The notes below the pieces were generated by a model. That model was not told the origin of the DNA. It searched no databases and saw nothing but the letters and a program-made list of their open reading frames with translations. The position numbers and the translations under genes were made by a program. 64,000 nt of DNA from Centruroides vittatus (lineage: Eukaryota): positions 1,802,938 through 1,866,937 of the forward strand of contig NW_027122681.1 of assembly GCF_030686945.1 (NCBI RefSeq), given 5' to 3'. Positions 4,118 to 51,910 of the stretch are shown here, in pieces (the first letter of the stretch is position 1; every line of letters begins with the position of its first letter).

Positions 4118-4247
4118 CTTCAGATGCAAAAGCAGCCGCTATTTCCATTTCATCTTCAAAGCCCATATACGGTAGGTCATCAACATCAATCTCTTCCAAT
4201 AAATTATATTTTAGAACGGAACTGTCAAATTCCAAAAAATCTTCTTG
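4118..4247 (-). CDS. PARP4: PARP4-like C-terminal exon, acidic (QEDFLEFDSSVLKYNLLEEIDVDDLPYMGFEDEMEIAAAFASE)
   Basis: Acceptor tttttag; donor TGAAG|gttagtt, phase 1 out. The gene continues below 4118 toward the window start. Confidence 0.45.
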
Positions 4248-4319
4248 CTAAAAATAAATTAAAAATTAGGCCAATAAAAAATCTAAATTATAAGAAATTT
4301 TTATTTTAAATTCACTGAC

Positions 4320-4502
4320 TTCTGTTCTTTTCTCAACAGCAATAAAACTAGTAAGAGACGTAACCAAGTTAAATTGTTTACTAAATTCAATTATTTTCTC
4401 TCTATTGGATTTTTTTTCTAGCAATTGATCGACTCTGTCATCAGCAAGTAGACCATCTTCCCAATCTCGAATAATGGATCGAGCAGCCAATTTATGTAAC
4501 AT
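4320..4502 (-). CDS. PARP4: PARP4-like C-terminal exon (MLHKLAARSIIRDWEDGLLADDRVDQLLEKKSNREKIIEFSKQFNLVTSLTSFIAVEKRTE)
   Basis: Acceptor tattatag; putative weak donor GAA|gtcagt. Overlaps ORF 4266..4502. TSFIAVE resembles the conserved ITIH/PARP4 C-terminal motif. Confidence 0.45.
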
Positions 4503-4712
4503 CTATAATAAAAATTGTAAAGAATAAAAATACATACTTTAATTGAATATTTCTAATAAGATAATATCAGTAATCTTTCTTTTCTGTTTGTATGTTATTA
4601 ATTATGTTGAAATATATCAACATTTGAATCTAGAGTGTAAATTCACTCAGTTTAAGAATTAGCAAACAAACATTTTAAATTCACCCAATAATTGAAAAGT
4701 GTTTAGACTTAC

Positions 4713-4793
4713 AATTCCTTCAGTGGCATTTAATTCAGATGCATATAATACTGTTTCAAATTCTTGTCCTTCAATATCTGCCTTCAACTTTAC
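4713..4793 (-). CDS. PARP4: PARP4-like C-terminal exon (VKLKADIEGQEFETVLYASELNATEGI)
   Basis: Acceptor ttttctag; donor GGAATT|gtaagtcta; 27 codons. Confidence 0.4.
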
Positions 4794-6320: not shown

Positions 6321-6494
6321 AAAACTAACACCTTCTGGACAAAATCCATAAATAATTTGCCTACATCCATTGAATATACTCATTATTTGCTTAGGTGTCT
6401 GGATCACTTCTTCACATCCATCATAAACGTTTTGCCATTCAATTCGTACATTTGTTAGAGATGCTTGAGTTGTTCTCATAATTTGTTTTTGTAC
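6321..6494 (-). CDS. PARP4: PARP4-like C-terminal region exon (VQKQIMRTTQASLTNVRIEWQNVYDGCEEVIQTPKQIMSIFNGCRQIIYGFCPEGVSF)
   Basis: Acceptor tttaag; donor AGTTTT|gtaagtatattt; 58 codons with an open frame. Confidence 0.45.
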
Positions 6495-8968: not shown

Positions 8969-9074
8969 CATATTCTTCCAGTTTTCCAAATTTAAAGTAT
9001 CTAAACATTCGTACACACCTCCACTTTTATTAGCAATTTGTTGCAATGTATGTTTGTTGATATAAGTAGTTGAA
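8969..9074 (-). CDS. PARP4: PARP4-like exon: vWA C-part (SSTTYINKHTLQQIANKSGGVYECLDTLNLENWKNM)
   Basis: Acceptor ttttttttatag, phase 2 in; donor AATATG|gtaaatat. IAxxSGG is typical of the vWA C-terminus. Confidence 0.6.
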
Positions 9075-9165: not shown

Positions 9166-9421
9166 CTTAAACCTATTGTAAATATCCTCACTTTGTTGCT
9201 ATAAGATTTGATACTTTTAAATATTATCCTTTCATTATTAATGTCACCATCACTCAAGAGAATTATATTCTTTATGCCTTTTCCAGTAGTTAATTGATAA
9301 TATTTTAAAACTCTTGAAAATTCTGTATTGCCTAATAATGTAACCTGTTTCAGGAAATTCATAGCCTTTTCCACATTTTTTGAATTACATATTTGACTTG
9401 ATGGAAATAACTCATGAAACA
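9166..9421 (-). CDS. PARP4: PARP4-like exon: vWA domain middle (VFHELFPSSQICNSKNVEKAMNFLKQVTLLGNTEFSRVLKYYQLTTGKGIKNIILLSDGDINNERIIFKSIKSYSNKVRIFTIGL)
   Basis: Acceptor ctttttgatag, phase 1 in; donor GGTTTAAG|gtaggaact, phase 2 out. LLSDGD is the vWA beta-strand/Asp motif. Confidence 0.6.
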
Positions 9422-9727: not shown

Positions 9728-10345
9728 TGTTTTTTTCAACCTCCGATGGTCCATAAAAAAAAAAAAATGACAAGAGTAAATAACAAAATGAATTTATTAC
9801 TAAAAGTTAGGTACAAACTTGGTTACTTTTCAACATAATCACCGTGAAGATTGAAGCATTTGTCATATGTGTGGATGAGCTTTTCCATCCCCTCTTCATA
9901 GAATGTTGCCACTAATGACTTGAGATGAGCCCTAATGTTGTTTTGAAGATCGTCATTAGTCTCAAATCTCTGCCCTCCTAACCACTTTTTCTGTTTAGGA
10001 AAGAGGTGGAAGTCGCTCAGTGCAAAATCAGGTGTTTAAAGATAGTAAATCCTTTCACCCAACTTGAAACTTTTTAATGTGTGAAAACTTCCACTTCTTT
10101 CCTGAACTGAAAATGTGGCTAGCAGGGCAGAGGTTTAAGACTAATGAACTAATGACAATCTTCAAAACAACATTATATGAAGAGGGATTTCAAAGCTCAT
10201 CTACAGATATGACAAATGCCTCAATCTTCACGGTGATTGCGGACGAAAAGTAATCATGTTTGTACCTAACTTTGGTAATAAATTCATTTTGTTATTTACA
10301 TTTGTCTTTGATTCATGGACCATCAGAGGTTGAAAAAACCGCTCT
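9728..10345. mobile_element. Palindromic head-to-head duplication of a mariner-like element 3' end (transposase C-terminus + terminal TTAGGTACAAAC…GTAATCAC repeat + ~80 bp flank)
   Basis: 9728-10020 matches the reverse complement of 10020-10345. For example, tttttcaacctccgatggtccat (9735) mirrors atggaccatcagaggttgaaaaa (10315). Both arms translate to …LKSLVATFYEEGMEKLIHTYDKCFNLHGDY / …TIFKTTLYEEGFQSSSTDMTNASIFTVIADEK, which is mariner transposase C-terminus-like. Confidence 0.55.
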
Positions 10346-10834: not shown

Positions 10835-11021
10835 CTGATCCAAAAACTACTATATTAAAATAACAATTATGTGGAAGATTTTTGAGACATAGAATAGCTG
10901 TCTTCAAAGCATCTGCAAATAATTTCCCTTGCATAGAATTTGATGCATCTAATGCAATAATTATCTCAGGATGAGGATTTGTAACTGCTTCGAATTCTGG
11001 ATAAAATGTCAACATGCAAAC
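10835..11021 (-). CDS. PARP4: PARP4-like exon: vWA domain N-part with MIDAS motif (VCMLTFYPEFEAVTNPHPEIIIALDASNSMQGKLFADALKTAILCLKNLPHNCYFNIVVFGS)
   Basis: Acceptor tttaaacag; donor GGATCAG|gtaataatg. DASNSM is the DxSxS MIDAS. Overlaps ORF 10734..11015. Confidence 0.7.
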
Positions 11022-11835: not shown

Positions 11836-11999
11836 ACCCAATCAAAATATTCAGTTTTCTCAAAGAAAGATGGAAAGCCCAGGTGAATTCTAGCAATATT
11901 AGAGTCATCAGTGAAAGGCAGATTACACATTTTGTTAAACATAAGATATATCTTATTAATAGCAGAAGTAATCTTGTGTAAAAGAGAAAGTGCAGCCAT
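11836..11999 (-). CDS. PARP4: PARP4-like exon between VIT and vWA (…HKITSAINKIYLMFNKMCNLPFTDDSNIARIHLGFPSFFEKTEYFDW)
   Basis: Donor TTGATTGG|gtaatatatt at 11836. The 5' boundary is uncertain because the frame stays open to about 12060. Overlaps ORF 11817..11999. Confidence 0.4.
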
Positions 12000-12049
12000 T
12001 GACCGGATGGGCAGTCCATAATCAATGTGTAAGGGCCAGCCAATGGGAG

Positions 12050-13802
12050 AGAAAGAAAGTTACGGCGATCAAGCAGTCAGACTGACTTGTGGGAATGGAC
12101 TGACATCACTGAGACAGGTTACCATCTAAAACCGTTTAATAAACATAAAAATGGAGCTTACAAAAATGCTTTTAATTCGGCGTAACACCAATCCAACGGG
12201 CGGATCAGTCCGTGTAACAGTTCAATAGTCCCGTCGATCGTTTAAACTTCCGATGAAGGTGAGGAGGGTGGTGTCGGCCCCGGGGCACACTGCACGACTT
12301 GTTGTGACGCTTTCGGCGGCGGGATGTACCTGGTCGCAACTCGTCGGGAGCGGAGGTCGGAGACCAGGTCGAAGCGACGATCCAGACTTCGTTGTTAAAC
12401 TTTATCCGGAACCCAGTAGCGGAGCACCCTGCACCGAAGACCAAGAACTCCGAATGTCCTTGAAACGACGATTTTATAATCTTTCTCCCCCAAATCGCCT
12501 CTTCATTGGTCTCTCATTGTCACCTGGTGCCAATTCGAAACCCGATGGAGGGCGCGGGAGAGGTCATCGTCGCGACAGAACTTGATTCCTCTCTCGTCGC
12601 GTGTTTCTCGAATTCGTTCTTTTCCTTTGTTTTAAATACACAGAAAAAACTTCCATTAAACAATGGAAAGCTCCAATTTCGTCCCTTTTTAGTCGAACCC
12701 CGTTCGGGTCCTCACAGGGCACCCCCCTTTCGTTTAAAATGTCGCCACCGGATGCGACATTTTAACCACTGGCTTTTGGCCTCGCGAGCGGATACCGTTT
12801 TGAACTTCACTGGGCATCCGACATTGAACTGATAGCTCTCGCGTGGCTATCGAGTTGTAGGAGGTGTCGCGTAACATTGAATAAAAGTTCGGTTTCCTAT
12901 TGAAACAGCATTTTTTTTTCTAACCGGAACTCCCGATTTTTTTTTAATTGTTTTTAAACATTTCTGTTTTTCTCTGTAGATTGAGCGATTTATATAAATC
13001 TTAAAATCCGATTCTAAATCTCCTAAAAAGCCAAAAAGAGGCAAATACCGACTGCATTCGTGTTCCTGTCCAATTCTGCCGTTTAGGACCACGAACAGTG
13101 ATTCAATAGATGATTTGTCTCATCTGTCACAACAAGAAGCTGAGCGCAAAAGCTGTTACCTGTGCTTCCGGTATGCTTTCGTACCGGCGTACGTGCAAAC
13201 CATGTTCGGAAGTCACAAACATCTCTCTGCAGCTACGTCTCTAGCTCCCCCTTTTTTTTATGTCCGTCTTCTGATTTCGGCGACATTGTCCTGTCATCGA
13301 CTTTTTTTCGATGCAGAACATCACAATTCCAAATCACCGTCAGAGACAATTGTATTTTTCGTTGTTTCTGTCTAAAGGAGCTTTTGTAGATAACTATGAA
13401 GCAATGACGACAATTTCGGTTTTCCTCCTATTATCGTTCATCATCTCCCCTCGTTGTTTTCTGTGCGTCAGAATTTTTTTCTGGGGCAGATGTGATCATC
13501 AAGCACATGCATTTTGGGGGAAATTTTTTTTTCTTTAAATTGGATTATATGAACCACTCAATCTTTGACAAATTCATCAGTGTTCCGTTCGTGACAAATT
13601 TTTTTTTTTTTTTTGACAATTCTTGGTTTTCCGACAATTTGGAATTTGAAAAACGCGTTTCGTCATTGAACTTTCAGGATCTACAATGAGTATTTTACAC
13701 AGATGTAAATTCGTTCGCGACAATTCTGTTCACCAGGGCGATTGTTTTTCACATTTTTTTTTTTTTTGTTTTTGGTATGGTGGCCTCTTCCCTACGGAGA
13801 GC
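12050..13802. repeat. Left inverted arm flanking the gag-pol ORF; a diverged homolog of the reverse complement of about 20470-22850
   Basis: 12508-12552 (cattggtctctcattgtcacctggtgccaattcgaaaccc) matches the reverse complement of 22337-22385. 12100-12200 matches the reverse complement of 22700-22800 (cactgagacag…ggttac…aaaccgtttaat…gcttacaa). A conserved hairpin taaaatgtcgc…gcgacatttta sits at 12737-12768 versus 22065-22095. The sequence around the hairpin aligns only in inverted orientation (ctgtgagg…ccgaac). The arm carries poly-T tracts (13597-13616, 13752-13766). Confidence 0.6.
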
Positions 13803-16800
13803 TCACCATTTACATCGCGTAAATAGGCCGATAGGCGTAGGCGGCGGCAGGCGCTCGCGACCCTGAATTTGTGACGTTGACGCGCCCCCTTCTCCTTCGC
13901 TTCTGCGGAGAGGTTCCACCGTTTGCCCGTGCCTATGGGTTCGTGGCAACACCCAAGGATACTCGTCCGCGGGTCCTTGACTCCGCAAAGCGTATCGGTG
14001 TGTCGGTTGTGCCACGGTGGTTGGCTGACTACTCTCTATCGCTGCCGCGGGCTCTGCCTGATCTGGCTGTATTGACGTTAGGATAAATTCATCCCAGGGG
14101 TCTACTGTTTCGGAAGCTTGTGGTTCCGAAGCCGAAGTCTCGCCTTGAATCGTTTCTGACCTTTGTTCGCTGGTGCATAAAGACGCAAATTCCATTCTCG
14201 CGATAGCAGGTTTCAGACGATTTGCGTGAACGTGTAACTTCTTACCCGTTTGGATATGTTGGACAACAAAGTCCACAGGACTAGTCTCCGCTATAATCCT
14301 ATACGGTCCCTGCCATCTAGGTGCCAGTTTCTTTTTCAACCCAGTAGGGACTACTACTTCCGTCACAAAGACTCGGTCTCCAACTAAAAACTTATGGGGT
14401 TTATTTTTGCGCTGCTGGTATTCCTTCCTGTCCAGCGCGGCCTTTTCCGCGTGCTCTTGAGCTAATTGGTGAGCCAAAGCCAACCTCAACCTTAGCTCGC
14501 TCGCATAGTTCTCACTAACATCATAGCTTGGTCTGCTAGGTTCAGTGACCACGTCGAACGGATAAACCGGATCTCTCCCATATACTAAATAGAATGGGGT
14601 TTCATTCGTGCTGGAATGCACGGCGGTGTTGTATGCGAAAAGCGCAAACGGGACCATCTCGTCCCAGTTGCGTTGGTCTGTATCGGTGTAGTGTGTCAAT
14701 ATATCTACTAACGTTTTATTCAAACGCTCTACCATTCCATTGCATTGGGGGTGGTAGGCGGTAGTAAGCAATCTTTCTATTCGCAAAAGCTCACAAACCT
14801 CGCGCATCATTCTCGAGGTGAAATTTGCGCCTCTATCGGTTAGTAGCTGTTTCGGAACCGAATGTCTTAGGATTATGTGCGTAACAAACGCCTTAGCGAC
14901 TGTCCTGGCTGTGACGTCGGGCAACGGCACTGCCTCGGCCCAACGTGAGAAATGATCCACGAAAACCAGTAGATATCTATTGCCGTTATGGGTAGTGGGA
15001 AAGGGACCTTGAATATCAAGAGCCGTCCTCTCGAATACCTTAGTAATACGGGGAAAAATTTGCAAGGGTGCCTGATGCCCGTGCTGCGGTCTCTTTCGCA
15101 TACTACATTCCTGACATGATTGACAATAGTGAGCTATGTCCTTGTTCATGTCGGTCCAGTAGAATTGAGTGTGCAATTTTTTCTTTAGTTTCTTCGCCCC
15201 CAGGTGTCCTGAACTAGGGATGTCGTGGAACATCTTCAAGACATATTCGACCATGTTCCTGGGTATAACCAATCTGTCCCATATTTCATTTCTGTCAGGG
15301 TTAGACTTCCTATGATACAACGTCTGTTCCGTATCTAAGTAGAACTCACTACTCTCGGGACTCGGACTCTGTTCTGGTGACTGGGAACGGTCGGTTAATT
15401 TCCGTCTAATCTCTATGCAAAAGGGATCTTTTTGCTGTTGTTCTCTGATCTGGGCCTTGCTGAATATTGGGAGTAACTCGTCAATGGAGGAAATCGGCAC
15501 CCTACTCAATGCATCGGCATTGGTGTGCGCCTTTCCTGGACGATGAACTATTTCAAACTGGTACTCCTGCAGAGCCAGATTCCATCTGCTCAACCTTGAG
15601 CTCTCATCCTTCACGTTGATAAGCCATTTTAGAGGCCGGTGATCGGTTATAATTTTAAACTTCCGACCATACAAATATGGCCTAAAATACTTTATGGCCC
15701 AGATGACGGCTAGACATTCCTTCTCCGTCGTGCTGTAGTTTCGCTCGGCTTTCTTGAGCAAGCGGCTCGCGTAAGCCACTGGTAGGTCGCCGCTTTCGTC
15801 CTCCTGCGACAACACAGCGCCTATTGCTACATTGGATGCGTCTGTTGCTATAATGAAGGGTCGACTAAAGTCAGGCGATCGCAGAAGCGGAGCAGAGGTC
15901 AACGCTTTCTTCAATCTCTCAAAAGCTGACTCCTGTTCCTCTTGCCATTGGAATTTCGTTTCTTTCTTCAAAAGCTCGGAGAGAGGCCTTGACATTTTCG
16001 CGTATTGGGCTATATGTCTTCGATAGTATCCAGTCAATCCCAAAAATGCCCGGACATCTCGCTCATTTCTCGGCCGTGGGAAGTCTCGAACAGATTCTAT
16101 TTTTCCCGAATCCGGTCGGATTCCCGCTTCGGAGACCTCATGTCCCAAAAATTTTATCTGTCTCTTTAAAAAGTGACATTTCCTAGGCTTAAGTTTTAAT
16201 CCCGCTACGGCTAATCTTTGGAAGACTAGTTCTAACCTCTCTAGATGAGAGTGGAAGTCGGGACTAAACACAAGGATGTCATCCATATATACTAAGCATA
16301 TTTTGTTCTTCAGCCCACTTAATATCAAATCGGCGCACCTTTGGAATGTGGCCGCTGCGTTGCATAAACCCATCGCGAGGCGATTAAAGTGGTAATGCCC
16401 CGATGGAGTACTGAACCCCGTTTTCTCTTTTGAATCCGGGCTCAGCGGCAGTTGCCAATAGCCACTCAACGTGTCCATAGTAGAATAATATTTGGTCTTG
16501 CCCAATAAGCTCAATGATTCCTGAATCAATGGCAAGGGGTATGGATCTACCTTCGTCACTTTATTTAATTGCCTATAATCTACCACAAATCGATAGCTCG
16601 AATCAGCTTTCTTGACTAATAAAGCTGGCGATGACCATGGGGAGCTGGAGGGTTCAACTACCCCACTCTCCATCATGTCTTCAATTAATTTGTCCATAAC
16701 TTCTCGCTGCGCATAGGGAATGCGATATGGAGCCCGATAGAGTGGAGGACTATCGCCCGTATCTATCTTATGCTCGGCAAAATTGCAATAGCCCAAGTCA

Positions 16801-19325
16801 AAATCATCCCTCGCAAATACCTGTCTGTATTTATACAATAGGTCCAGCAGAGGGGTCAGTTTGTCCTTCCCTATTTCGCTTAAATCGAATAAATTTGCTA
16901 CTTGAGCTCTAGTTAACTCCTTTCCCTTAGGACGTAATGCATTATTTCGTTCGCCCATTTCCTTTGTTTCTTCCTCCGCCTTAAAAAAGGTGCCTACTTT
17001 ACTTCCTCTATTTAATTTAATAGGTTGAGTTGCAACATTCATAATTCTAATCGGTATTTTACCGCGGTGTTGTGTTTTCACTAAGATCCCTGCTATAAAC
17101 GTTTCTTCTCGGTCTAAGGTGCAAGGTTCTACTACTCCTACCTGGTTAACGACTTCTCCTCTCACATTTCCTTCCACAATGACTTCCGATCGCGGAGGAA
17201 TTACGCAATCGTTTAACAACACGACGTCTTTCGGAGCGTCATCTTCCCTTTTGTTTTTTCTAACCGCTGAACTTTGGTTTAGAGTTTCTAAATTGTTTCT
17301 CTGTTTGCTTATCCGCACGCGGCTACCTTTTCTTTGTCTTTTATATTTGTTACATTTATTAAACTTGTTCCTAACTTCGCCAACATAGTCTAATCGTGTC
17401 ACATTTTCCTCGACCCTAACATGTGGCTTCTTCTCTTTCTGTCTATTATCCCTTGTTTCTAATCTTCGCGGATTACTAACTTTGTTGTGAAAACTCGCTA
17501 ATCCCCAAAAGGTTATCTCATCTCCCGTTGGGAATATTAGCTTCGCATTTTTAATGGATATGGTTATATCATATTTCTCAATTATATCCCTTCCTAAAAT
17601 TCCCTCATTTGGCTCGGTTATTTTAGGGTCTACCACGTAACAGTCGTGCGAAAACGCTAGGTTGCCAATTTTAAATTTTATGTTATATTTTCCCATTGTT
17701 TCTATTTCATGCCCTGTTACGCTTATTAACTCTACCGCGCTCGTTTCCGCTTTCTGCACTTTGCTCAAATCAGGAAAGAGAGTTTTAGATACTAATGTAA
17801 CGGCTGCGCCCGTATCTATCGTTAGTCGCGTTCTTTTACTTTCTATTTCGCAGACCAAGGTACACGGCGGTAATTCCAGCGGAGAATCCTCACTCTTTGA
17901 TCTCCCGACTCCCGCTAATGGGATTGTATTGCGCGCTTCCTCCTGTAACCGTTCCCAGTCGCGTGGTTGATCTCTAACTTTAACCGTGATAACTCTATCG
18001 CCGCGATTCCCTTTTGAACTATCTCGCCTTCCTTCCCTCTGATAATCGGCTTGTTCGCCGCTTCCTTCTGAACTTGGCAAGGCTAGGCATTTGCTGGCGG
18101 TCGCCCCAAACGGTGTTCGCGGCGTCGCGTAACTCCCTTCCGGCCAATCCTGATCGTACCGCGCCGGAAAATAAGGCGTTTGTTCCCAATTTTGCCCTTC
18201 ATTTTGCCCAAACTGCCTATAATGGGCCTGATAAAAAGGAGCACGACCCGTATATTGTAAATACAATGGGTTTGGAAAGGGTGCTATCGGGGTTTGTTTC
18301 CTAGACACCGACTGATCGCACTGGTTAAATTCCGGCCATACCTGATATGAATGGACAAAAGGCAAGGGTTTTTCCCGGTCTACTTGTCCCGTTAGTGGAA
18401 AAGGGTTCGGTCCGCGGTATTGCCACAACGGCCTTGGATAGAAATTCGCGGGAGAGGGCCTAAATGATCGCCCACCCGGGGGTCTAGAAAAGTTCGGAGG
18501 CCGTGGTTGGCGTTGCCCGCTCGAATAATTCTGCGCTTTTCCCCTTCCAAAATTGGGTGTAGTAGCGGATTGGGGTGTTTGCCTAAATTGCGTGTACGCC
18601 TCCTTACGAGGATTATTTATTGGTTCTTTTGAAATGCGCTTCTCAAATTTTTTTCCTAAATCTTCGAGTTGCCTCGAAATTTGCTCGATTTTCGCATCCA
18701 GCGCGGGTTCTTGGGTTACGTTTTTGTTCTCCCTTTCTAGTGCGTGATCGTCCTGCGTTTCCTCTACGCCCGCAACCAAATTCCTATTTTTCCCCGTTAG
18801 CTGTTCGATCGTTTCCTCCCTAATCGCTATCCTTAATGCTTCTGCGAATGTGGGAGGGTCTTGTGCCATAACATTTCTTTTATGCTTCTCGTTTAGTCCG
18901 TACAAAAATTGGACGTGAAGCTTTTCATCTAGCTCCCGCTGCAGACATTGTCTTATGGTGGCGTGCTCCTGCTCTGTCGTTCCCGTGTGTTGGATGGTCG
19001 TCGCGCTGGCTAGAGTTTGCAACCTAACCGCAAATTCTTGCACCTTTTCTTCCCGTCTCTGGACGCAAGCGTGAAATTTTTGCACGCGAATCGAATACGG
19101 TTCTTGGTTAAACCTCTGCACCATTAATCGTCGAAACTCGTCGTACGCGATAACGCTTTTCATCTGCATGTCCCTCCATGCAAAATCTCTGGCTACGCCC
19201 GCTAGTTTGCATTTCGCGATACCTAATTTCTGTCTCGCGGTCCATCCCGCTAAGCTGGCTACCTCGTCCAACGTATCAAAAAAGTCGGAGATGCGCCCGC
19301 TTTCCCCGGAAAAGGTTGGGATCAT
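13803..19325 (-). CDS. Intact 1840-aa gag-pol polyprotein of an LTR-retrotransposon type (capsid-like Gag; aspartic protease DTGA; RT with YMDD; RNase H; HHCC + DDE integrase)
   Basis: A single uninterrupted ORF. Motifs seen: LTIDTGAAVTLVS (protease); YYSTMDTLSGYWQ and CLVYMDDILVFS (RT); IIATDASNVAIGAVLSQ (RNase H); HYCQSCQECSMRKRP (HHCC zinc finger); LVFVDHFSRWAEAVP…LLTDRGANFTS (DDE core); GDRVFV…KLAPRWQGPYRI (integrase C-terminus). The PR-RT-RH-IN order fits Ty3/gypsy or BEL-Pao. GC content is about 48% versus about 25% in the host. Confidence 0.9.
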   Translation of the reverse strand: MIPTFSGESGRISDFFDTLDEVASLAGWTARQKLGIAKCKLAGVARDFAWRDMQMKSVIAYDEFRRLMVQRFNQEPYSIRVQKFHACVQRREEKVQEFAVRLQTLASATTIQHTGTTEQEHATIRQCLQRELDEKLHVQFLYGLNEKHKRNVMAQDPPTFAEALRIAIREETIEQLTGKNRNLVAGVEETQDDHALERENKNVTQEPALDAKIEQISRQLEDLGKKFEKRISKEPINNPRKEAYTQFRQTPQSATTPNFGRGKAQNYSSGQRQPRPPNFSRPPGGRSFRPSPANFYPRPLWQYRGPNPFPLTGQVDREKPLPFVHSYQVWPEFNQCDQSVSRKQTPIAPFPNPLYLQYTGRAPFYQAHYRQFGQNEGQNWEQTPYFPARYDQDWPEGSYATPRTPFGATASKCLALPSSEGSGEQADYQREGRRDSSKGNRGDRVITVKVRDQPRDWERLQEEARNTIPLAGVGRSKSEDSPLELPPCTLVCEIESKRTRLTIDTGAAVTLVSKTLFPDLSKVQKAETSAVELISVTGHEIETMGKYNIKFKIGNLAFSHDCYVVDPKITEPNEGILGRDIIEKYDITISIKNAKLIFPTGDEITFWGLASFHNKVSNPRRLETRDNRQKEKKPHVRVEENVTRLDYVGEVRNKFNKCNKYKRQRKGSRVRISKQRNNLETLNQSSAVRKNKREDDAPKDVVLLNDCVIPPRSEVIVEGNVRGEVVNQVGVVEPCTLDREETFIAGILVKTQHRGKIPIRIMNVATQPIKLNRGSKVGTFFKAEEETKEMGERNNALRPKGKELTRAQVANLFDLSEIGKDKLTPLLDLLYKYRQVFARDDFDLGYCNFAEHKIDTGDSPPLYRAPYRIPYAQREVMDKLIEDMMESGVVEPSSSPWSSPALLVKKADSSYRFVVDYRQLNKVTKVDPYPLPLIQESLSLLGKTKYYSTMDTLSGYWQLPLSPDSKEKTGFSTPSGHYHFNRLAMGLCNAAATFQRCADLILSGLKNKICLVYMDDILVFSPDFHSHLERLELVFQRLAVAGLKLKPRKCHFLKRQIKFLGHEVSEAGIRPDSGKIESVRDFPRPRNERDVRAFLGLTGYYRRHIAQYAKMSRPLSELLKKETKFQWQEEQESAFERLKKALTSAPLLRSPDFSRPFIIATDASNVAIGAVLSQEDESGDLPVAYASRLLKKAERNYSTTEKECLAVIWAIKYFRPYLYGRKFKIITDHRPLKWLINVKDESSRLSRWNLALQEYQFEIVHRPGKAHTNADALSRVPISSIDELLPIFSKAQIREQQQKDPFCIEIRRKLTDRSQSPEQSPSPESSEFYLDTEQTLYHRKSNPDRNEIWDRLVIPRNMVEYVLKMFHDIPSSGHLGAKKLKKKLHTQFYWTDMNKDIAHYCQSCQECSMRKRPQHGHQAPLQIFPRITKVFERTALDIQGPFPTTHNGNRYLLVFVDHFSRWAEAVPLPDVTARTVAKAFVTHIILRHSVPKQLLTDRGANFTSRMMREVCELLRIERLLTTAYHPQCNGMVERLNKTLVDILTHYTDTDQRNWDEMVPFALFAYNTAVHSSTNETPFYLVYGRDPVYPFDVVTEPSRPSYDVSENYASELRLRLALAHQLAQEHAEKAALDRKEYQQRKNKPHKFLVGDRVFVTEVVVPTGLKKKLAPRWQGPYRIIAETSPVDFVVQHIQTGKKLHVHANRLKPAIARMEFASLCTSEQRSETIQGETSASEPQASETVDPWDEFILTSIQPDQAEPAAAIESSQPTTVAQPTHRYALRSQGPADEYPWVLPRTHRHGQTVEPLRRSEGEGGASTSQIQGRERLPPPTPIGLFTRCKW

Positions 19326-19992
19326 CCCACCACACTGGTGTCAGAGAAGTGGGATTTTAAATGCAGAATTTGCACAAATTCAGCGGGCCCACACTATAGT
19401 TGAGGATGCCGACATCAAAATTTCGCCCCGAAATTGAGTTAAAGGTGGGTCGGAACGATAGATGCTGAGACAGACACTTCGGCGCGAACTCGCGAGTTAG
19501 TTAGCAGTTCTCTTTCATTGGCCTTGGGAGGAATGATACCTGCTTTATTCGGTGAAAGTAAGCGTATTATGACTTCTTCGATCCCTTAAAAAAATATCGA
19601 GCTTAGCTGGATGATCCCGCAGAAATGCTTTAGTTAACCAAGCGCAAGCTCGCAGGTGCGACAATGATAGAATAAATAGGCTTGACCGAGCAACAAAACG
19701 CCACTATAAAATAGTGCCAGCAGCGGAAGTAGGCAAGATGTTCCGAGGTCAGTTTTTCAAAATATAAGTAAAAACATTAAACTGAGCGTCAGGATGCTTG
19801 GCACTGCTTCATTCACAAAAGCTCTAAAGGTAGCCATTAGGGAAGAAACGAGTGACTAGCAGAATGCATAGTTTTGTCAGGCGCGAAGCTGAAACGACGG
19901 AGAATAACCTAATGGATTCGGGAAGAGTGAAACTCCATAAGAAATCTGCGTTCGGTGCAAAGATGGGTCAAAATTTTAAACAGTTTAAAACT

Positions 19993-20427
19993 TTAGGAAA
20001 AATTGTTAGATAATCGAACATTGTCAGTACCGCTAACTGGTGCGCAAAGATAATATTCAGAATAAACAAACAGGACAACCCATGGAACGAGGGAATAGCG
20101 AAGTAGGAAACGCACACCCCTATCCGAATTCGCTGCAATGCTTTTCGCAACCTCATAACATGCAACCACTGTCGCCCGATTGGTATGGAGAAAAGGACGT
20201 CCCTCTGCCATCTCTAGTCGAGTGGAAATCGAGGCCAATGCGTTGCAGGTTCCGATTATAAATCCATCGTATTCATTGCGATATAGGCTAATTATTTCAG
20301 TAGATACTCTTTCATCAATCGCAGAATAGGCAAATCGAATCCGAAGTCGATTGAAATTTAGAACAGGCACTTTATGTAGAGGATTTTCTGACAGTATTAG
20401 CCCGGAAACAGGCCAATGCGACCGCAA
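19993..20427 (-). other. 144-aa ORF in the unique leader between the right arm and gag, same strand as gag-pol (possible accessory ORF)
   Basis: Six-frame ORF MRSHWPVSGL… of 144 aa with no recognisable domain. It lies 670 nt upstream of the gag ATG. Confidence 0.15.
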
Positions 20428-20469
20428 CTAGATGCTTAGCTTTTCTCAGTCCCAAGGTAGACGCAAAGC

Positions 20470-22850
20470 AAGCAGATTGTCAATTGCGAAAAAAAATATA
20501 GCAACTTTAACCTAAGGTTAAGATTACAAGCAATTACGGTATCCTACTCTCTTTTTTCTATCGGTCCGGTTTTGCGAACTGTGAATGATGAACTTTCATT
20601 CTGGAGAGGAGAGATCATCATAAAAACAAAAGCGAATGTTAATTTTAATTGAATTCACGTTTTCTGAAAATAAAAATTGTCGCTGAAAAAAAATGTATGC
20701 AAAAAACGTGCTTAAATGTTAAAATTGTCGCGAATCGGAATTCAAGTCAATGTGAGCGTGGTGCATTTCGAAAGGGAGCCATAGTATTGTTTTTGTTTCG
20801 TGTAAACTGTTCTGTCCATCCCTTACGAAGCGCTCACGATTGAGCCTACACTGGTCAAGGGAAGAGAGTCATGTCGGGGAAGCGACTTATCTCCTTGGTC
20901 AACGCCTTTCCAAAATTTTCTCACACTTAGGATAGATGACAGAAAATTGTCACTTTGTCTGTCCTAGAGAGAATGAGGATTTGATCACTCTCGAGAAAAC
21001 TTAACGATGATCTTCTATTTGATTCGCGCTCATCGGAAAACAATTTTGTCGTGATCAAAACATTGATGAAAACTTCTGTTATAGATTGAGTAATTTATAT
21101 AGTCAAAATGTCAGAAAATTTTTTCCTTTTTTGCGTACATGATGATTGATCATACCTGTCACAGTCGAGACTGCGAATAGACTCTGACCAGATCAAACGG
21201 AAGTTACGGAATAACACTCTGAACTGTGTGACCTTGATTAGCGGTAATCTGCGTCGGAAAACCGATGATAGAGAACTGTCACTGGTTCAAGAGACTGACA
21301 TCCGGAAGTTATGGCCGTAAAGACATTGGCAAGATCACAACTGCACACCGTCAATGCAGAAGCTCCATGATCCTCTTTCGGTCCAGTACAAAAAAAAAAA
21401 AAAAAAAAAAAAAAAATGGAAAAGATTTGACCCCCATGGTAAAGACGAAGTTTTTCAGAAAACTTGGAACGGAACTAGATGCATAGCTTCGAAAAGCACG
21501 TGTCTTCAACTTAGATCCAGAGAACTCCGCGCTACACGTGCACCTGAATGGCTATGAAGTTCCCAAGTTCCAATTCTGATTGAAACAGGCGAATTAAACT
21601 AAACGTTGAACCTGTTATCAGATTTCTGAATCAGATGTTCCGAAAAATTAGGAAGGGAACACGAATACATTCCATTCCTCCCCCCTCCGTTTCAGACCAT
21701 TTTCTGAAAATTTTGAGATTGTGTGAATTGCTCAGTCTGAAAACGAAAAACGAAAAAAAAACTCACATGTTTTAGAAAATAGTTTGTCGATCATTTATGT
21801 TGTTAAAATATTATTCGATGACCGTGATTGTTATTTGATTATTTGTAACCAATCTTATAAACAGACATGTGATGTTACACAAACATTTCGATGAATTGTA
21901 AACGATATTCTATACCATTCAATAATGTATCGAAAAAAAAAACTTTGGTGTAACTCGAAACCGAACGCGCGCCAGAGAAGGCTGGATTCTCAGACAAGTA
22001 TCGCTGTTACGTCACTTGGCAAACAAAGGGAGAAAGGACTGTCAGCTTCCAGAGCTGCCAGCTAAAATGTCGTTATTCCGTTACGACATTTTAAATTGGC
22101 GGGAAGCTCTGTGAGGCTCTGGATAGGTCCGAACCTCACTGAAATTCGCGTTAAAATCATTTATTTTTAGAAAAAAATTATTTTTTTTTAGAGAAAAAAA
22201 AAATAGAAGTTAGAAATAGTTTTTCTTAAGGAAAACGACGCGAACTGTTAAACAATAGAACAATGGGGAAACGTAGATCGTCTATCTCCGAGTGGGAATC
22301 GAATTAAACTTCGATTTTGACCTCTCCTGCGCCCCCGAAAGGTTTCGAATTGTCACCAGGTGACGAGAAGAGACCAATCGGAAAGCGGAATCGGAGGAAA
22401 ACAGATAAAACCTGAGAATTCAAGGACGCGAGGGCTTCTTCTCCCGAAAGTTCCAAGTGACGGATCTATTGTTGTGTGTGTGTCTGGTGCCCATCTTCGT
22501 CTCCGTCTCCCGACCTCGGATCGACATCTTTCCATCAACGGAAGTCGACCGCATCGTCCTGGAGTCGCGGAGTCGTCGAGGGAACTGGCCATTCGCGACC
22601 TAGGGACACTCCTTCAAAATGAGACTATATTCGAAAGGAGAGGAAGACCCAGAGACTGCTGCCGACCTAGAACTTCCAAGATCGCGGAAATCTTGTAAGC
22701 TTCTTTCGTGTCAAATAAACGGTTTCTTGTAACCGTAGAGTCTGTCTCAGTGCCGGTCGCCCACATACGACCCTTCGCGACCGCTCGACCCTCTTGACAT
22801 AGTCGGCACCCTGTCGGCAAACTCACAAATGCAAGGTTGAAAATTAACAT
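20470..22850. repeat. Right inverted arm (reverse-complement homolog of 12050-13802)
   Basis: See the left arm. It holds a poly(A)27 tract at 21380-21406 and repeated aaattgtcgc motifs. These appear on the opposite strand in the left arm (gcgacaatt), consistent with inversion. The inner boundary is uncertain; 19326-20470 looks unique. Confidence 0.5.
21380..21406 (+). repeat. Poly(A)27 homopolymer inside the right arm
   Basis: cagtac(a)27tggaaaag. The mirror poly-T tracts are at 13597-13616 and 13752-13766 in the left arm. Confidence 0.8.
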
Positions 22851-31640: not shown

Positions 31641-31801
31641 ATCAGTGTTTGTTTTGGTACTGATGTGTCTGTAGAAGAGTTTTTATTGTTTGTGAATAAT
31701 TTTGTTGTTTTTGTAGTGAACATGTTTTTATTATTATTATTATTAAAGTAATTAAATTAGTAATAATTAAATTTTTCATTAGAAATATAAACAAAACCAA
31801 C

Positions 31802-36630: not shown

Positions 36631-36791
36631 CGAAATTGTGAATTAATCACAAAATTATTCATTTTGTTAAATTCTTCACTATCAGAAGACAAAAATTGAA
36701 TATGACATCGAAGTGCTTTATATTTGGCATGGAGACAACCTTTCGGTGACCAACCAGTGGCTTCACTGACAGAAACCATGTCTCGTAAAAC
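36631..36791 (-). CDS. PARP4: PARP4-like exon, end of regulatory domain (VLRDMVSVSEATGWSPKGCLHAKYKALRCHIQFLSSDSEEFNKMNNFVINSQF-R)
   Basis: Acceptor aattttag; donor TTTCG|gtattg (phase 2). It joins the catalytic exon at 32038 in frame. It resembles PARP1 [28 protein letters not shown]. Confidence 0.55.
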
Positions 36792-36863: not shown

Positions 36864-37040
36864 TTGACATAGGTCTTTTTTCTGTGCAACTAATTGTTTA
36901 GACTTGATAGTTTGACTGTATTCTGACACATGAGGTAAAATTGAATAAAATTCCTTACTAAGTTTCTCTAGTAATTCTTCTGAATCAAATTCATTTAACA
37001 TTGAGTGAATTTGGAGTAAAATACTTTCTGCTTCATCAAT
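36864..37040 (-). CDS. PARP4: PARP4-like exon, PARP regulatory domain (IDEAESILLQIHSMLNEFDSEELLEKLSKEFYSILPHVSEYSQTIKSKQLVAQKKDLCQ)
   Basis: Acceptor tgtatag; donor TGTCAA|gtgagg. SKEFYSILPHVS resembles the PARP1 segment LSNRFYTLIPHDFG of the helical domain. Confidence 0.55.
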
Positions 37041-37133: not shown

Positions 37134-37268
37134 CTTCCACAAAGGTATAAATTCAGGATGACTTAGATATTTCTTTAAATGTCCAATTGCTTCTGTCCAT
37201 ACTAATTCTACAATATTTAGAACATTTTTATCTATGTGTGAAGATAATGAACTTAATTCCAACTGCAA
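37134..37268 (-). CDS. PARP4: PARP4-like exon, PARP alpha-helical regulatory region (LQLELSSLSSHIDKNVLNIVELVWTEAIGHLKKYLSHPEFIPLWK)
   Basis: Acceptor atttcag; donor TGGAAG|gtttgtaac; 45 codons. Confidence 0.5.
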
Positions 37269-39290: not shown

Positions 39291-39458
39291 TTTTTGAAAT
39301 GCAAGAGATCCAACTTCAGGATGTAGAATTTCCATAACTTCAATCATGTAATGAGGAGGTCCACATTTTGCAAAATAAATCTGACTAAATACTGACAAAG
39401 CTCTTTCAGCTGTTTCGAGAAAATAACAAACTTTTTTACTTTCAACAGTATTTTCATC
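39291..39458 (-). CDS. PARP4: PARP4-like exon (DENTVESKKVCYFLETAERALSVFSQIYFAKCGPPHYMIEVMEILHPEVGSLAFQK)
   Basis: Acceptor tttttcag; donor CAAAAA|gtatgcattt; 56 codons with an open frame. Confidence 0.5.
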
Positions 39459-39529: not shown

Positions 39530-39673
39530 TTGTTGACTTATGTATCCTTCTTCTACAAACACACAAAACTCTTTATCTGCTTCAACATTTCTTTCACTAG
39601 AAGCAACATGAAGTTCAACAATACAAAAATTATAATGTAATGTACCTCTTGAAGATGCTTTTTGTGCTTTTCC
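39530..39673 (-). CDS. PARP4: PARP4-like exon (GKAQKASSRGTLHYNFCIVELHVASSERNVEADKEFCVFVEEGYISQQ)
   Basis: Acceptor ttttttaag; donor CAACAA|gtaatgatg; 48 codons, phase 0 to 0. Confidence 0.5.
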
Positions 39674-39819: not shown

Positions 39820-39935
39820 CTTCAAAACCACAGGTTTAACAAGTTCATATCTGTGTAACTCTTCATATGGATATGTTGGAAGTGAATTCAAAAATACTTG
39901 AACAGTTGTGGGCTGTTTTTGCACATCCGAAGACA
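39820..39935 (-). CDS. PARP4: PARP4-like exon (…SSDVQKQPTTVQVFLNSLPTYPYEELHRYELVKPVVLK)
   Basis: Acceptor ttttcag; donor TTGAAG|gtgaatatc. Phase 1 in and phase 0 out match the flanking exons. Overlaps six-frame ORF 39700..39936. Confidence 0.5.
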
Positions 39936-43323: not shown

Positions 43324-43516
43324 CAAAAATTTTTCCTTTACGAAAGCCATTCATTTGAGTTTCATTTGAAATCAGGAAAGATTTGGTATCAATTAGTTTC
43401 TTGTTTTCTAAACATGCATTAATATAATCTTCTTTTACTATAGGAATTCCATATTTCTTTGCTGTCTTTTGTTTTATTGATGAAGTATTTGATTCTAAAC
43501 AAATTACAAATTTAGT
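43324..43516 (-). CDS. PARP4: PARP4-like exon: second half of BRCT (TKFVICLESNTSSIKQKTAKKYGIPIVKEDYINACLENKKLIDTKSF…)
   Basis: Acceptor ttttttccag; donor TTTTTG|gtaagttaaa. The reading frame is continuous with the phase-0 end of the previous exon. The sequence is a BRCT-like hydrophobic core. Confidence 0.6.
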
Positions 43517-44824: not shown

Positions 44825-45146
44825 TATAATAATCCAACAATCACCTAAATATTCAGGCTATAATATGGTTATAATCAAATGATTAATACAAATAAATTTG
44901 GTACTAGAGGTAAGTGTTAGGCACCATCTCTTATCTAAATTAATAATTATAATTTAATAAATAATTTAAAACCTTCTGGAAGAAAATAACTGACCCAGGG
45001 TGGGACTTGAACCCGCAACCTCCGCTTGCCATGCGGTGTGCTACCAATTGTGCCACCTGGACCCCAAGCCAGCCTTTGCTTCCATTAATTATTTAATTAT
45101 AGCCATATTATAGCCCGAATATTTAGGCGATCGTTGGATTATTTAA
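44825..45146. mobile_element. Inverted-repeat (~60 bp arms, ~88% identity) element whose ~200-bp loop contains the tRNA-like unit
   Basis: 44827-44886 (aataatccaacaatcacctaaatattcaggctataatatggttataatcaaatgattaat) is approximately the reverse complement of 45084-45146 (attaattatttaattatagccatattatagcccgaatatttaggcgatcgttggattattta). Confidence 0.6.
44992..45063 (-). tRNA. tRNA-like sequence (anticodon-loop reading GGC / Ala-like) with Pol III A box (TGGCACAATTGG) and B box (GGTTCAAGTCC); probably a pseudo-tRNA or SINE head
   Basis: Minus strand reads GGTCCAGGTGGCACAATTGGTAGCACACCGCATGGCAAGCGGAGGTTGCGGGTTCAAGTCCCACCCTGGGTC. The acceptor pairs (two G-U wobbles) and the T-arm and anticodon stem-loop form. 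The D-stem is not complementary (GCAC/GCAC), so it is unlikely to be a functional tRNA. Confidence 0.4.
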
Positions 45147-47679: not shown

Positions 47680-48034
47680 CTTTTTAGTAACCATATACGA
47701 TACAATTCCCCCGTTATCAATGATTTTTCTCCTCAATCCTTGTTTCTCTTTCATTTTCATTGAGAGAGGCATATCTAAAACTATTTCATAGTCATTAAAT
47801 AATTTTCTTTCTATGTGTTTACATAAAATTTCTTCTTGACTTGGCGAATCTTCCACAATATTTTCCAAAACTTCTGCAATTTCCTTATTAAATGAACTTC
47901 TGTCTAGAATGTTCTTGGTTAATTTATCATTAAAAACTTCAGTTTTGTAATTTGAATCTCTCTGTAGTTTTCCAGAAAGACCCAAGAAAGGAGTCAAATT
48001 TCCAATAAATGTTTCAAGTAGTGCCATGTTTAAT
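47680..48034 (-). CDS. PARP4: PARP4-like exon: N-terminus and first half of the BRCT domain (…MALLETFIGNL…QGLRRKIIDNGGIVSYMVTKK)
   Basis: ORF 47668..48099 (minus) has an internal ATG at 48027 in Kozak context aaacATGG. The donor is AAAAAG|gtaagttt at 47680. The BRCT-like GG motif is present (RRKIIDNGGIVSY). Confidence 0.6.
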
Positions 48035-48189: not shown

Positions 48190-48735
48190 ATATTTCCAAA
48201 CGAGCAATTATACATTGTGACAATACCACAATAAATAATGCACTTAAGTTTAGTAGTGTCTTACCCATGTGTACTGTACATCATACTTCTCCTGTTAACA
48301 AAGAAGTCATGCCAATTATCTATCTAACTCCGTTCAGGAAAAATTTTTGAATTGAAATAACATTACTTCAGACCCAAAACAGAAGTTTGTATATAGTATA
48401 CTGGCACAATGAAGTGACGCTTAGTCAACACTGGGCGAGTTTTTCCATCTTTATTTAGTTAGATAAACAAAAGACTAACTAAATAAAGATGGAAAACTTG
48501 CCCAGTGTTGATTAAGCATCACTTCATTGTGCCAGTATACCAAATACAAATAACAACACGGTTTCGACAGTACCAAAGTTTGTATATAGTTAATCAGAGC
48601 CTCCTGCCTCTAGGCTTTTTATATCTGATCTTGACTTTCATCTAATATTGTTCTTGATATTAAGGAAAGACAGACAGACAGTCGACAGTGGGAATTTATA
48701 GGTCATTTTTTCATATTGCAGACCAATAAACTGAC
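48190..48735. repeat. Copy of a recurrent composite SINE/foldback repeat, with its internal hairpin expanded to a ~150-bp near-perfect palindrome (48388-48545)
   Basis: Family motifs seen: the head tagtagtg(t/g)cttgcccct-tacatcatacttctcctgataacaa…tcatctatctaactc; the middle cagaagtttgtatatag / aagctttccatatctg; the tail gacagacagacaacagtgggaatttataggtctgcaatttgaaaattgtagcc. The palindrome reads tatactggcacaatgaagtgacgcttagtcaacactgggcgagtttttccatctttatttagtta|…|taactaaataaagatggaaaacttgcccagtgttgattaagcatcacttcattgtgccagtata. Confidence 0.6.
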
Positions 48736-50337
48736 CAAGCCTTTTTACTTATCATTAAAGAAGTTATCTTGCTTTATCAATGAAGTTAAATATATAAATG
48801 TTCTTTAAACTGTATCAAATATTTTTTTTCCACATATTTTTCAGAAATAAAATAAAATCCAAACAAATATAATTATCATGATATAGCAGCTCAACTTCCT
48901 ACCTGTAGACAAATTACTTCATATTTAATTATTAACTTAGGCTAATTGTAACCCAATAATTTAGCATACGGTTCAGCTCTAGTCAAAAATTGGGTTTGTT
49001 GAGTTATCGTTTATATATAAAACTGTCACTAACATTTCATATAAACAAGTTCATTTCAAAATGGATTCTTTTTCATTTTTCTTCAATACCTTCCTGTACA
49101 CCAATTATTTATTGTTAAATTTAATATTTAAGATAGCCAATATCTGACCAATCAAAAATAACAACTAGGCATCAGCCTACTGCTCTGAGGGCCATGGAGT
49201 CAAATCCAGATGGATAAAAACCCCCAAAAATTATGGATGATCTGTCCCAGAAGTGTCAAGTTTCATTCCTCACCATCCAGCAGCCCCATTTAAATCTAGA
49301 AAAATGGTCCTGCTAGTGATCACAGGACATAAAGAACAGGAAAAAACCAAATTTTTTAAAATTAGAATTTCGTAATAACAAATATATTTAAAATAGTTAC
49401 ATAACTATTTTTATACAAATATTATCATCTTGTATATTTCTATATATTGATAAAGTGATACATTTGTTTGTATTTAATTTGATGTTATTGTTTCCCACTT
49501 TATAATGATGATAAATAACATGTCATCATTAAACAATTATTACACATCTTTATATGTTTTGCAATTCATCCTAAATCTGACAAATTATCTAGAATCACAG
49601 ATTTGCAATAACTTTATAATAATTGCAATTTTTATAATTGATAATTAAATTATGAAATCATAAATATAAATTCATATAATTTTTAAACAATTTTTATTTT
49701 GGCTTTTTCCATCATTAAGAGAGACTTTTCCCAAACCCATCATGTAGAGCTGGAATTAGACTTGTTGTGGCCCTAAGCTATATAACCTGTAATTAGGCAC
49801 TTCTCCTCCACTAAATAATGATACACGAAATAATGTGAAGCCCTAAACCAGTGTTCCATGAACTTTTTGCAAGTGTTCTGCAAAATTATGAAAATGGCAT
49901 ACTAGCCGAAACTACGATTGAGGTTTAGCGTAAATTCGCAGCTTACAACCCAGACAAGGTGCAACATGCATTTTGCAGTGAACTATCTTTGTTACCTTTG
50001 CAAAGACAAGGAACTCATACTATATTCAAGCAATGTTCTTTGTATAGAGAATCCCTACTAGCAACATTAAAATCTACAATAGACAAAGTTGTAAATATGC
50101 TAAATTACATCAACCCAAGATTATTAAAAACATGACTTTTTAAAAAATTTGAATACCTATGGAACTCAGTATGTATCTTTACTTTTGCACATAGAAGTAA
50201 TATGGTTCTTCAGGGGTAAAATAATATGTCCATTTTTAGAACTTCAGAATTTTTTTTCTAAAATGAAGATACAAATTTGTCCTAAAAATAATATTTGGTT
50301 TAAAATCAATATTTGGTTTTCTAAAATGGCATATTTA

Positions 50338-50893
50338 TCTGATATGAACAGTCACAAACAAAACCTTTTTTTTACCAGTATTGAACTTAAACTAAAACTA
50401 AACTTCCGAATGTTTTCAGCCTTCACCAAGGCCTGCTTCAGATGCTGAACTAAATTGGCTTCCTACTTGGACTGTTAGAACAATGCTGTTCGATTTAACA
50501 TTGCATATATCAAATTTTATCCTTCTACCTGACTCCGCTCGAATTCCTAAAACAGGTAGCTCCACACATGCGCAATAGTCTCACTGTCTTTAAAGTTAAT
50601 ACAGTTGCCTCTTAAGTTGGCTTTATAAATCTCCAAGGCCTCCAGGTGGCGAATATGATCTATTTGAATTATTTGAATATGATCATCGAATTAATCTGGT
50701 GTTCTGGAAGTCCACACTAACTTCTGGGTTGGTGGCGTACATAGACAAGGCAGTGGTGTGTCTGTTGTTTGTAAGGTCGGATTGACGTTCACATATCATA
50801 TTGCGAGTTGAACGTATGGTTGAGCCAATATAAATTAAGTCCCTATAAATTAAGTTCAATACTGGTAAAAAAAGGTTTTGTTTGTGACTGTTC
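50338..50893. mobile_element. MITE-like element with ~50-bp terminal inverted repeats (tgaacagtcacaaacaaaaccttttttttaccagtattgaacttaa)
   Basis: 50341-50392 is approximately the reverse complement of 50840-50893. Confidence 0.55.
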
Positions 50894-51893
50894 ATTTCTC
50901 ACTCCAGTATTTATAAGAAGACTGTTATTTTATCTGATATTTTTAATTACTCAAATTGCATTAATACAAATGTGCTGAGAAAAAATGAAAATATTTTGAC
51001 ACCTAGTGACAAATGTCAGCATTTCAGGAAAAGTATTTCTTTGGAAATATCACATATTAGAAAAAATATAATACTTTTTTTCTTATTTATTTTTGTTATA
51101 ACAAAATATTTAACACTATTGAAAGTTATTTTCCTTCCTTAAATATAGAAAATTATGATTGGTTATGAAAGCCGTCTGGCAGGGTTAATACATCAAGTTG
51201 GGAATTTTCGATACAACAAGAACAATTGATCACCTCGTCAACAGATTGTATGTACATTAAAAACGAAATTCTCCTAACTCAAAAGTTTTGGATTTTTGCC
51301 CACGCAAATAACATTTTGTTCAGTTTTTATTAATGTTTGTATATTTGTTTTAGCTCAGATCTCACATTCACCAATATAAAAACTAAAAAACAAGAAAGAT
51401 TTACTAATATAAACGAAGAAATGAAAATAGCCGTGTCACATATTAGACTCGATATTGATATAATCTTCAAAATCCAAAAACTCATGTATTTATAATTAAT
51501 TTAAAGAAGTCCCATTTTCATAAAATGTTATTCTCATTACAGTTTTTACAAATGTAATATTTTAAATTAATGTCATTTTACTTTTACTTATTCCTTGACG
51601 TGATCTAACTCACGTGTATTGGGTTGATAATCGGTTCAGATAGCCTTTACCCATTTGGGTAATCCTATTTCACACTGAGTACGATTATATGTCGGTGGCC
51701 GACTCGTAAGGACCAATCGTAACGGGTGTTAGAAATCGTTTGGTAGAAGTTTATTTTATCGACACCAACGTTTTTCTTCTTAATTATATTTATAATAGAG
51801 ACATACATGCTAGACATGTCCAAAACACATCGAATATATGAAGGGCAACTCATTTAAAAAACGCTATAAACAAAAAATCATAGGACTACTTAC

Positions 51894-51910
51894 CGACTGT
51901 GCACCGCCAT
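51894..51910 (-). CDS. Putative first coding exon of the PARP4-like gene (M-A-V-H-S-R..., 17 nt, then GTAAGT donor)
   Basis: Minus strand reads caagctaaagcgATGGCGGTGCACAGTCG|gtaagtag. It lies in a CpG-rich region with three CACGTG E-boxes. Its phase-2 end joins in frame to a tttttatag acceptor 7 nt upstream of the exon-A ATG (CG+A = Arg, then L-N-M-A-L-L-E-T-F). It could instead be 5' UTR with an in-frame upstream ATG. Confidence 0.35.

Follow-up and report, generated by a model that had tools for sequence, protein, structure and literature searches.

Human PARP4 (vPARP), the 193-kDa vault protein (PDB 11jf, 9bw6, 9bw7 and 8sx1), is among the closest known counterparts of the gene considered here. 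It belongs to PARP clade 5, a group that is defined by its BRCT-PARP-VIT-vWA domain order and has been reported only from animals and Amoebozoa (PMC2964712). Human PARP4 has an H-Y-E catalytic triad, is considered mono-ADP-ribosylating, and binds vault RNA through its BRCT domain (PMC10711553). It docks into the vault via its MINT domain (residues 1562-1724); on the MVP side, the residues in contact with PARP4 are reportedly conserved in vertebrates only (PMC12280208). Arthropods were once thought to have lost MVP itself, but most ecdysozoan lineages, non-Acari arachnids among them, have it; winged insects, malacostracans and branchiopods do not (PMC11219742). Annotated PARP4 homologues range from sponges to vertebrates, and one of them comes from another arthropod, a millipede. 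Here we analysed a PARP4 locus in a 64,000-nucleotide stretch of the genome of Centruroides vittatus, the striped bark scorpion (Arachnida, Scorpiones, Buthidae). This stretch (contig NW_027122681.1, positions 1,802,938 to 1,866,937) is referred to as the window, and positions are given in its coordinates.

Identification of the PARP4 locus

The locus is very probably a single-copy, intact PARP4 orthologue with 23 or 24 coding exons and transposon-filled introns, whose product has no counterpart of the MINT domain. It covers approximately 44 kb of the minus strand, with the coding sequence running from 48284 to 4113, and contains 23 coding exons, or 24 if an alternative first exon is counted. 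The spliced model (3915 nt, 1304 aa, no internal stops) is letter-for-letter identical to RefSeq XP_067141074.1 (1304 aa), isoform X2 of C. vittatus. Splicing a 20-nt exon (48284-48265) to position 48034 reproduced exactly isoform X1, XP_067141073.1 (1313 aa). Both isoforms are named 'protein mono-ADP-ribosyltransferase PARP4-like' in RefSeq. The gene is thus already on record for this species and its identification itself is not new; a literature search for papers naming both PARP4 and Centruroides found none.

When the product was searched against all PDB sequences, it matched human PARP4 (PDB 11jf_P, 1724 aa) in a single stretch (query 93-1297, chain 21-1218, E=1.1e-222), and the PARP4 catalytic fragment 8sx1 was matched at 2.8e-75. 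In the same search, PARP3, PARP1 and PARP2 reached 1e-20 to 1e-16 and ITIH4 3.5e-10. A HMMER search of the whole protein library, started from a shark PARP4 fragment, found a 1390-aa protein of Centruroides sculpturatus that is 94% identical over all 1304 residues and reproduces all exon junctions. The RefSeq 'PARP4-like' proteins XP_023233095.1 and XP_023233094.1 of that species fall in the same cluster as both C. vittatus isoforms. The original prediction, made from the letters of the window alone, had proposed that a single gene of PARP4 type lies here, with its H-Y-E triad intact and its introns filled with transposons, and the collinear human match, the RefSeq identity and the unbroken open reading frame (ORF) bear this out. 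A broken ORF or domain hits belonging to two adjacent genes had been named as what would refute it; we found one collinear match and an unbroken ORF of 3915 nt.

Pfam searches of the spliced product recovered, in PARP4 order and above the curated cutoffs, the five domains that had been predicted: BRCT (residues 74-152, 5.5e-11), PARP_reg (368-436, 9.6e-9), PARP (465-642, 3.3e-28), VIT (706-816, 1.8e-38) and VWA_3 (950-1102, 1.4e-21). Rough exon peptides gave the same five, likewise above the cutoffs. The full order is BRCT, a WGR-like region, the PARP_reg helical domain, the ART catalytic domain with H-Y-E, VIT, vWA and a short acidic tail; the Pfam domains follow the order of PARP clade 5A (PMC2964712). 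All five motifs quoted in the original prediction, which did not state the strand, were located by motif search on the minus strand: LLFHST (31950-31933), GIYFTD (31827-31810), DNEFVIYD (25956-25933), VFTVSVGNIPP (24968-24936) and DASNSM (10949-10932). At the residue level, the three catalytic residues of the scorpion protein stand opposite LLHGS (H), GIYFSD (Y) and DDEFVVY (E) in the human catalytic domain (8sx1). The metal-ion-dependent adhesion site (MIDAS, DxSxS...T...D) of the vWA domain is also complete, with DASNS, GNTEF and LSDGD lying opposite human DCSSS, GNTDF and VSDGH. The acidic C-terminus that had been noted is likewise present, with 14 D/E among the 44 residues of the last exon.

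Comparison with C. sculpturatus

The orthologous locus of C. sculpturatus (L001) is collinear with the window. Most exons are 94-99% identical between the two species, versus 85-92% for introns. Over the whole coding sequence, synonymous divergence (dS) was 0.089 and nonsynonymous divergence (dN) 0.027, giving a dN/dS of 0.30 (Nei-Gojobori). Together with the intact frame, the canonical splice sites and the conserved catalytic and MIDAS residues, this ratio indicates, at the level of sequence, that the gene is under purifying selection and is not a pseudogene.

In C. sculpturatus, PARP4 exon 17, which encodes part of the vWA domain, occurs twice (L001 31652-31840 and 41484-41672) with 100% protein identity, the second time downstream of the gene. 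The repeated exon reflects either a duplication or a misassembly in GCA_000671375.2.

The C-terminus and the MINT domain

The scorpion product stops at a point corresponding to human residue ~1218, right after DVDDLPYM (human DVDFLPYM), and is approximately 500-900 aa shorter than other PARP4s. Pfam has an entry for the MVP-interaction domain (PF26156, PARP4_MVP-ID); our searches for MINT used two purpose-built hidden Markov models (HMMs), the first made from 29 domains and the second trained without seven sequences treated as invertebrate (four of the seven were later confirmed by name). The set was seeded with the C-terminal segment of a provisional human PARP4 sequence, which matches the C-terminal domain of many homologues, including invertebrates. 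Both HMMs detected MINT in several groups. With the second, MINT was detected in PARP4s of a mussel (1e-18), a nemertean (4.5e-18), a chiton (3e-17), a tunicate (5e-9), Nematostella (isoform X1, 1.5e-26) and Hydra (1e-11), and in transcript P0095 (5e-10). Across other invertebrate PARP4s the MINT HMMs gave 1e-9 to 1e-40. The millipede PARP4 showed a weak C-terminal match. In the scorpion proteins, neither HMM found a match (E=1.6-1.7). Six-frame ORFs gave no match either, whether from the window, with its 4.1 kb beyond the stop, or from the C. sculpturatus locus together with 14 kb on its downstream side.

For the genus, MVP is on record: the supplement of PMC11219742 lists the orthologue CSCU017193-PA for the bark scorpion gene set, and its sequence matches MVPs at E ~1e-200. 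The label vPARP in the original prediction divides in two: the PARP4 architecture holds, and the vault part is unproven, because the MVP-interaction domain is absent from both product and locus, even though the genus has MVP.

Alternative explanations

Two alternatives concern the integrity of the gene. VIT-vWA proteins lacking a PARP domain exist, ITIH4 and ITIH1 weakly match the C-terminal half of the product, and several database fragments consist of VIT-vWA alone, so that a PARP1/2/3-type gene and an ITIH-like VIT-vWA gene could have been merged into one model. Such a merger is practically untenable. The human PARP4 alignment runs unbroken over the PARP/VIT boundary, the introns between the last catalytic exon and the VIT exons are just 318 and 79 bp long with canonical sites and matching phases, the two halves are joined in RefSeq models of two scorpion species, and the PARP4 score is 200 orders of magnitude better than that of ITIH. 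As far as sequence can show, the single collinear PARP4 match refutes two genes; membership of the ITIH family itself was rejected, as PARP and BRCT lie in the same ORF as VIT-vWA. The locus might alternatively be a decaying, transposon-riddled pseudogene, given that two introns together contain approximately 16 kb of recently inserted transposon sequence, including an insertion with a complete polyprotein ORF in sense orientation and one that comes to within 120 bp of a catalytic exon. We consider decay highly improbable in view of 3915 nt free of frameshifts and stops, GT-AG borders at 22 of 22 X2 introns, intact catalytic and MIDAS residues, exons clearly better conserved than introns, and the dN/dS of 0.30 relative to the sister species.

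A third alternative accepts a functional gene and disputes only its end: the annotated stop would belong to a short isoform, and a long isoform would continue from a donor at 4118 to MINT-encoding exons beyond the window, making this a normal vault PARP. Several observations point this way and weigh against an intact orthologue that ends without MINT. The stop TAG overlaps a donor-like site (AAG|GTTAGT, which would place the exon end at 4118) that is conserved in both scorpions (window 4113-4121; L001 39709-39720), and the NCBI models of C. sculpturatus use it to reach exons further downstream, which leaves room for a longer isoform. Only 4.1 kb 3' of the stop lie inside the window, and a MINT domain split over short, divergent exons could evade an HMM. 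In Nematostella, MINT occurs in isoform X1 and not in X2, so it can be isoform-specific, and both P0095, the closest non-scorpion relative, and the millipede PARP4 are 540-890 aa longer with a MINT-like segment at the end. More generally, identity with RefSeq reflects agreement with the NCBI pipeline and not expression, the gene being known here from sequence alone, and both its activity and the choice between mono- and poly-ADP-ribosylation are drawn from human PARP4 only. On the other hand, the C. sculpturatus exons reached from the donor (L001 42297-42383 and 43983-44153) add 85 residues that encode a nuclear-receptor DNA-binding (zinc-finger) domain and nothing of PARP4. Since these exons adjoin the duplicated PARP4 exon, the combined model is probably a gene-model fusion or a misassembly; the homologous position of this region lies approximately 230 bp past the left edge of the window. 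Furthermore, C. sculpturatus has no MINT-like ORF within 14 kb downstream, a different same-strand gene starts 1.7 kb past the end of its model, and both C. vittatus RefSeq isoforms end at 4113. A MINT-bearing long isoform thus appears rather unlikely, and we retain the reading of an intact PARP4 orthologue whose product ends after DVDDLPYM.

Exon chain and 5' region

Exon anchors were open segments with homology; frame-compatible GT/AG pairs were enumerated between neighbouring anchors, and unclear spots were inspected by eye. The provisional human PARP4 sequence served only as a lead for locating exons and seeding the MINT set, and for human residues 254-584 the matches obtained with it were derived anew from PARP4 as deposited in the PDB. 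The X2 chain has 22 introns, all GT-AG, with lengths of 69-12,792 bp. The window has 33% G+C; most introns have 23-30%, and blocks of 40-50% G+C are transposons.

All exons lie on the minus strand. The alternative first coding exon of X1 (48265-48284, MMYSTHG-) is followed by the donor GTAAGA, and the resulting model equals XP_067141073.1. BRCT (Pfam residues 74-152) is split between two exons: its first half is encoded by exon 1 of X2 (47680-48034), along with an N-terminal extension, and its second half by exon 2 (43324-43516). The WGR-like region starts in exon 3 (39820-39935) and continues through exons 4 (39530-39673) and 5 (39291-39458); the junction residues of all three match the C. 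sculpturatus orthologue. Exons 6 (37134-37268) and 7 (36864-37040, Pfam) encode the helical PARP_reg domain, whose end, together with the start of the ART fold, lies in exon 8 (36631-36791). Exon 9 (31802-32038) carries the catalytic H (LLFHST) and Y (GIYFTD), exon 10 (26032-26215) more of the catalytic domain, and exon 11 (25800-25956) the E (DNEFVIYD). A linker and the start of VIT occupy exon 12 (25339-25481), the remainder of VIT being found in exons 13 (25041-25259) and 14 (24813-24971, with VFTVSVGNIPP), both with Pfam matches. Exons 15 (24048-24167) and 16 (23814-23945) lie between VIT and vWA. The vWA domain is encoded by exon 17 (10835-11021, MIDAS DASNS) and exon 18 (9166-9421, MIDAS Thr in GNTEF and Asp in LSDGD), again with Pfam matches, and ends in exon 19 (8969-9074). 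These are followed by exons 20 (6321-6494), 21 (4713-4793) and 22 (4320-4502, MLHKLAARSIIRDWEDG...) and by the last coding exon (4113-4247), which carries the acidic tail and the conserved DVDDLPYM, with the same sequence in C. sculpturatus.

The start ATG of X2 (48027-48025) stands just 3' of an acceptor AG (48036-48035), and hence at least one 5' exon lies further upstream. A conservation scan of 48.3-51.6 kb found no clear 5' untranslated region (UTR) exon upstream of 48284. Within this interval, 49050-49800 is 92-100% identical to C. sculpturatus in 60-bp windows, above its surroundings, and could be the site of a 5'UTR exon or promoter. The gene limits first proposed fared differently at the two ends. 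At the 3' end, the proposed 4118 comes no more than 5 bases short of the last base of the stop TAG (4115-4113). The 5' limit, 51910, falls inside an inverted-repeat arm (51729-52884) and has to be replaced, the first coding exon (X1) starting at 48284. This repeat is 1156 bp long and 99.6% identical between its arms, 51729-52884 and 57782-58935, which flank approximately 4.9 kb containing a reverse-transcriptase fragment on the plus strand (54692-55234). C. sculpturatus lacks everything from 51.6 to 59.8 kb. This stretch could have arisen by a foldback-type insertion or a recent inverted duplication, or it could be an artefact of assembly.

Transposon insertions in introns

Three insertions (a young long terminal repeat (LTR) element, debris of the long interspersed nuclear element (LINE) type and a 10.9-kb gypsy block) are absent from the orthologous locus of C. 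sculpturatus. These lineage-specific insertions occupy large PARP4 introns and leave the reading frame undisrupted. That the gene tolerates insertions even between its catalytic exons, as had been claimed, agrees with a frame that is intact despite insertions in introns 9 and 16.

Intron 9 separates the exon with H and Y from the exons leading to E. It harbours the young LTR element on the plus strand, antisense to the gene (26651-30394). Its 708-bp LTRs (26651-27358 and 29687-30394) are identical at 707 of 708 bases, which fits the youth ascribed to it earlier; a divergence of 0.14%, compared with approximately 9-12% between the species, places the insertion far later than the species split. 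Just inside the LTRs are a primer-binding-like site, TGGCGC, on the 5' side and a purine tract on the 3' side; a search for a target-site duplication gave no clean one. Its interior contains one 557-aa ORF (27827-29500) limited to gag, zinc-knuckle and partial protease, and the element is therefore non-autonomous. The LINE that had been placed between the catalytic exons is present in the same intron as a degenerate non-LTR reverse-transcriptase remnant on the minus strand (30494-31682), with RVT_1 matches on two fragments, 11 stops over its length and its end approximately 120 bp from exon 9.

The insertion in intron 16 is a 10.9-kb GC-rich block on the minus strand (11945-22827, 45-50% G+C). 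It contains an uninterrupted 1840-aa ORF (13803-19325, minus), in the same orientation as PARP4, with the gypsy/Ty3 order protease, reverse transcriptase, RNase H and integrase. Repeat finding, self-BLAST and word-7 BLAST of the flanks detected no LTRs around this ORF, only a 62-bp inverted match (12505-12566 and 22318-22378). The earlier description of an intact retroelement thus applies to the ORF and is unproven for the element, which may have inserted into another element or may end in unusual termini.

Smaller features were also observed in other introns. Intron 1 contains a tRNA-Ala(GGC)-like sequence (44991-45063, minus; 29.5 bits against the 29-bit Rfam threshold) between 60-bp inverted arms (44828-44887 and 45143-45084), possibly a tRNA-derived short interspersed nuclear element or a miniature inverted-repeat transposable element. 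Intron 17 contains an inverted pair (9731-9908 and 10168-10338, 84% identical) with an open frame on the minus strand (9826-10035) that looks transposase-like by eye and has no Pfam match.

Discussion

By homology with human PARP4, the scorpion enzyme is predicted to attach ADP-ribose from NAD+ to proteins. An H-Y-E triad does not imply poly-ADP-ribosylation in PARP4, because the human protein carries it yet is classed as mono-ADP-ribosylating; by the same analogy, mono-ADP-ribosylation would be the most likely activity in the scorpion. The BRCT domain may act as an RNA-binding module and VIT-vWA as a metal-dependent protein-binding module. Without MINT, the enzyme might act outside vaults or reach them in some other way, or a long isoform might exist that is not annotated. 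It is quite conceivable, if a little short of probable, that scorpions keep MVP while their PARP4 has truly lost MINT, leaving a BRCT-ART-VIT-vWA core that is vault-independent or enters the vault via another contact. A true loss would fit the conservation of the MVP contact residues only in vertebrates. The absence of MINT in a lineage that retains MVP bears on whether the association of PARP4 with vaults is ancestral or facultative.

The suggestion that an intact PARP4 in this genome would be taxonomically informative turned out to be weak, as RefSeq already holds the gene for two scorpion species, a millipede PARP4 is annotated, and MVP in non-acarine arachnids has been published (PMC11219742). 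The locus nevertheless provides a worked example of a 1304-aa, 23-exon gene recovered from raw AT-rich sequence, and its three lineage-specific insertions can be dated relative to the sister species.

Among known proteins, ITIH1 and ITIH4 share only the VIT-vWA module (E 1e-10 to 1e-5) and have no BRCT or PARP domain. Short, MINT-less PARP4-like models with the same core as the scorpion are known from other phyla, including the crinoid Antedon (1267 aa), the scallop Ylistrum (1243 aa) and Nematostella (isoforms X2-X5), and may be genuine short isoforms or predictions that were cut short. At least those of the crinoid and the scallop end within 40-65 residues of the point where their alignment to the scorpion protein breaks off. 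Public PARP4 models also include a 14-3-3 domain in amphioxus (P0065, 1240-1334) and an actin fragment in Hydra (P0093, 1258-1322), both after vWA and both probably gene-model fusions. The MINT-bearing invertebrate PARP4s (the mussel Potamilus, the nemertean Tubulanus, the chiton Liolophura, Nematostella X1, Hydra and transcript P0095 from SRR3401116) are 35-46% identical to the scorpion from BRCT to vWA; they reach 1900-2400 aa with a MINT-like end, found by the vertebrate-trained HMM at E 1e-9 to 1e-26, which the scorpion protein lacks. Compared with human PARP4, the scorpion protein has approximately 75 extra N-terminal residues and lacks the last ~500, including MINT. The two share the same domain order, are collinear over approximately 1200 residues, and have in common the LAAR...IRD and DVDxLPYM segments after vWA.

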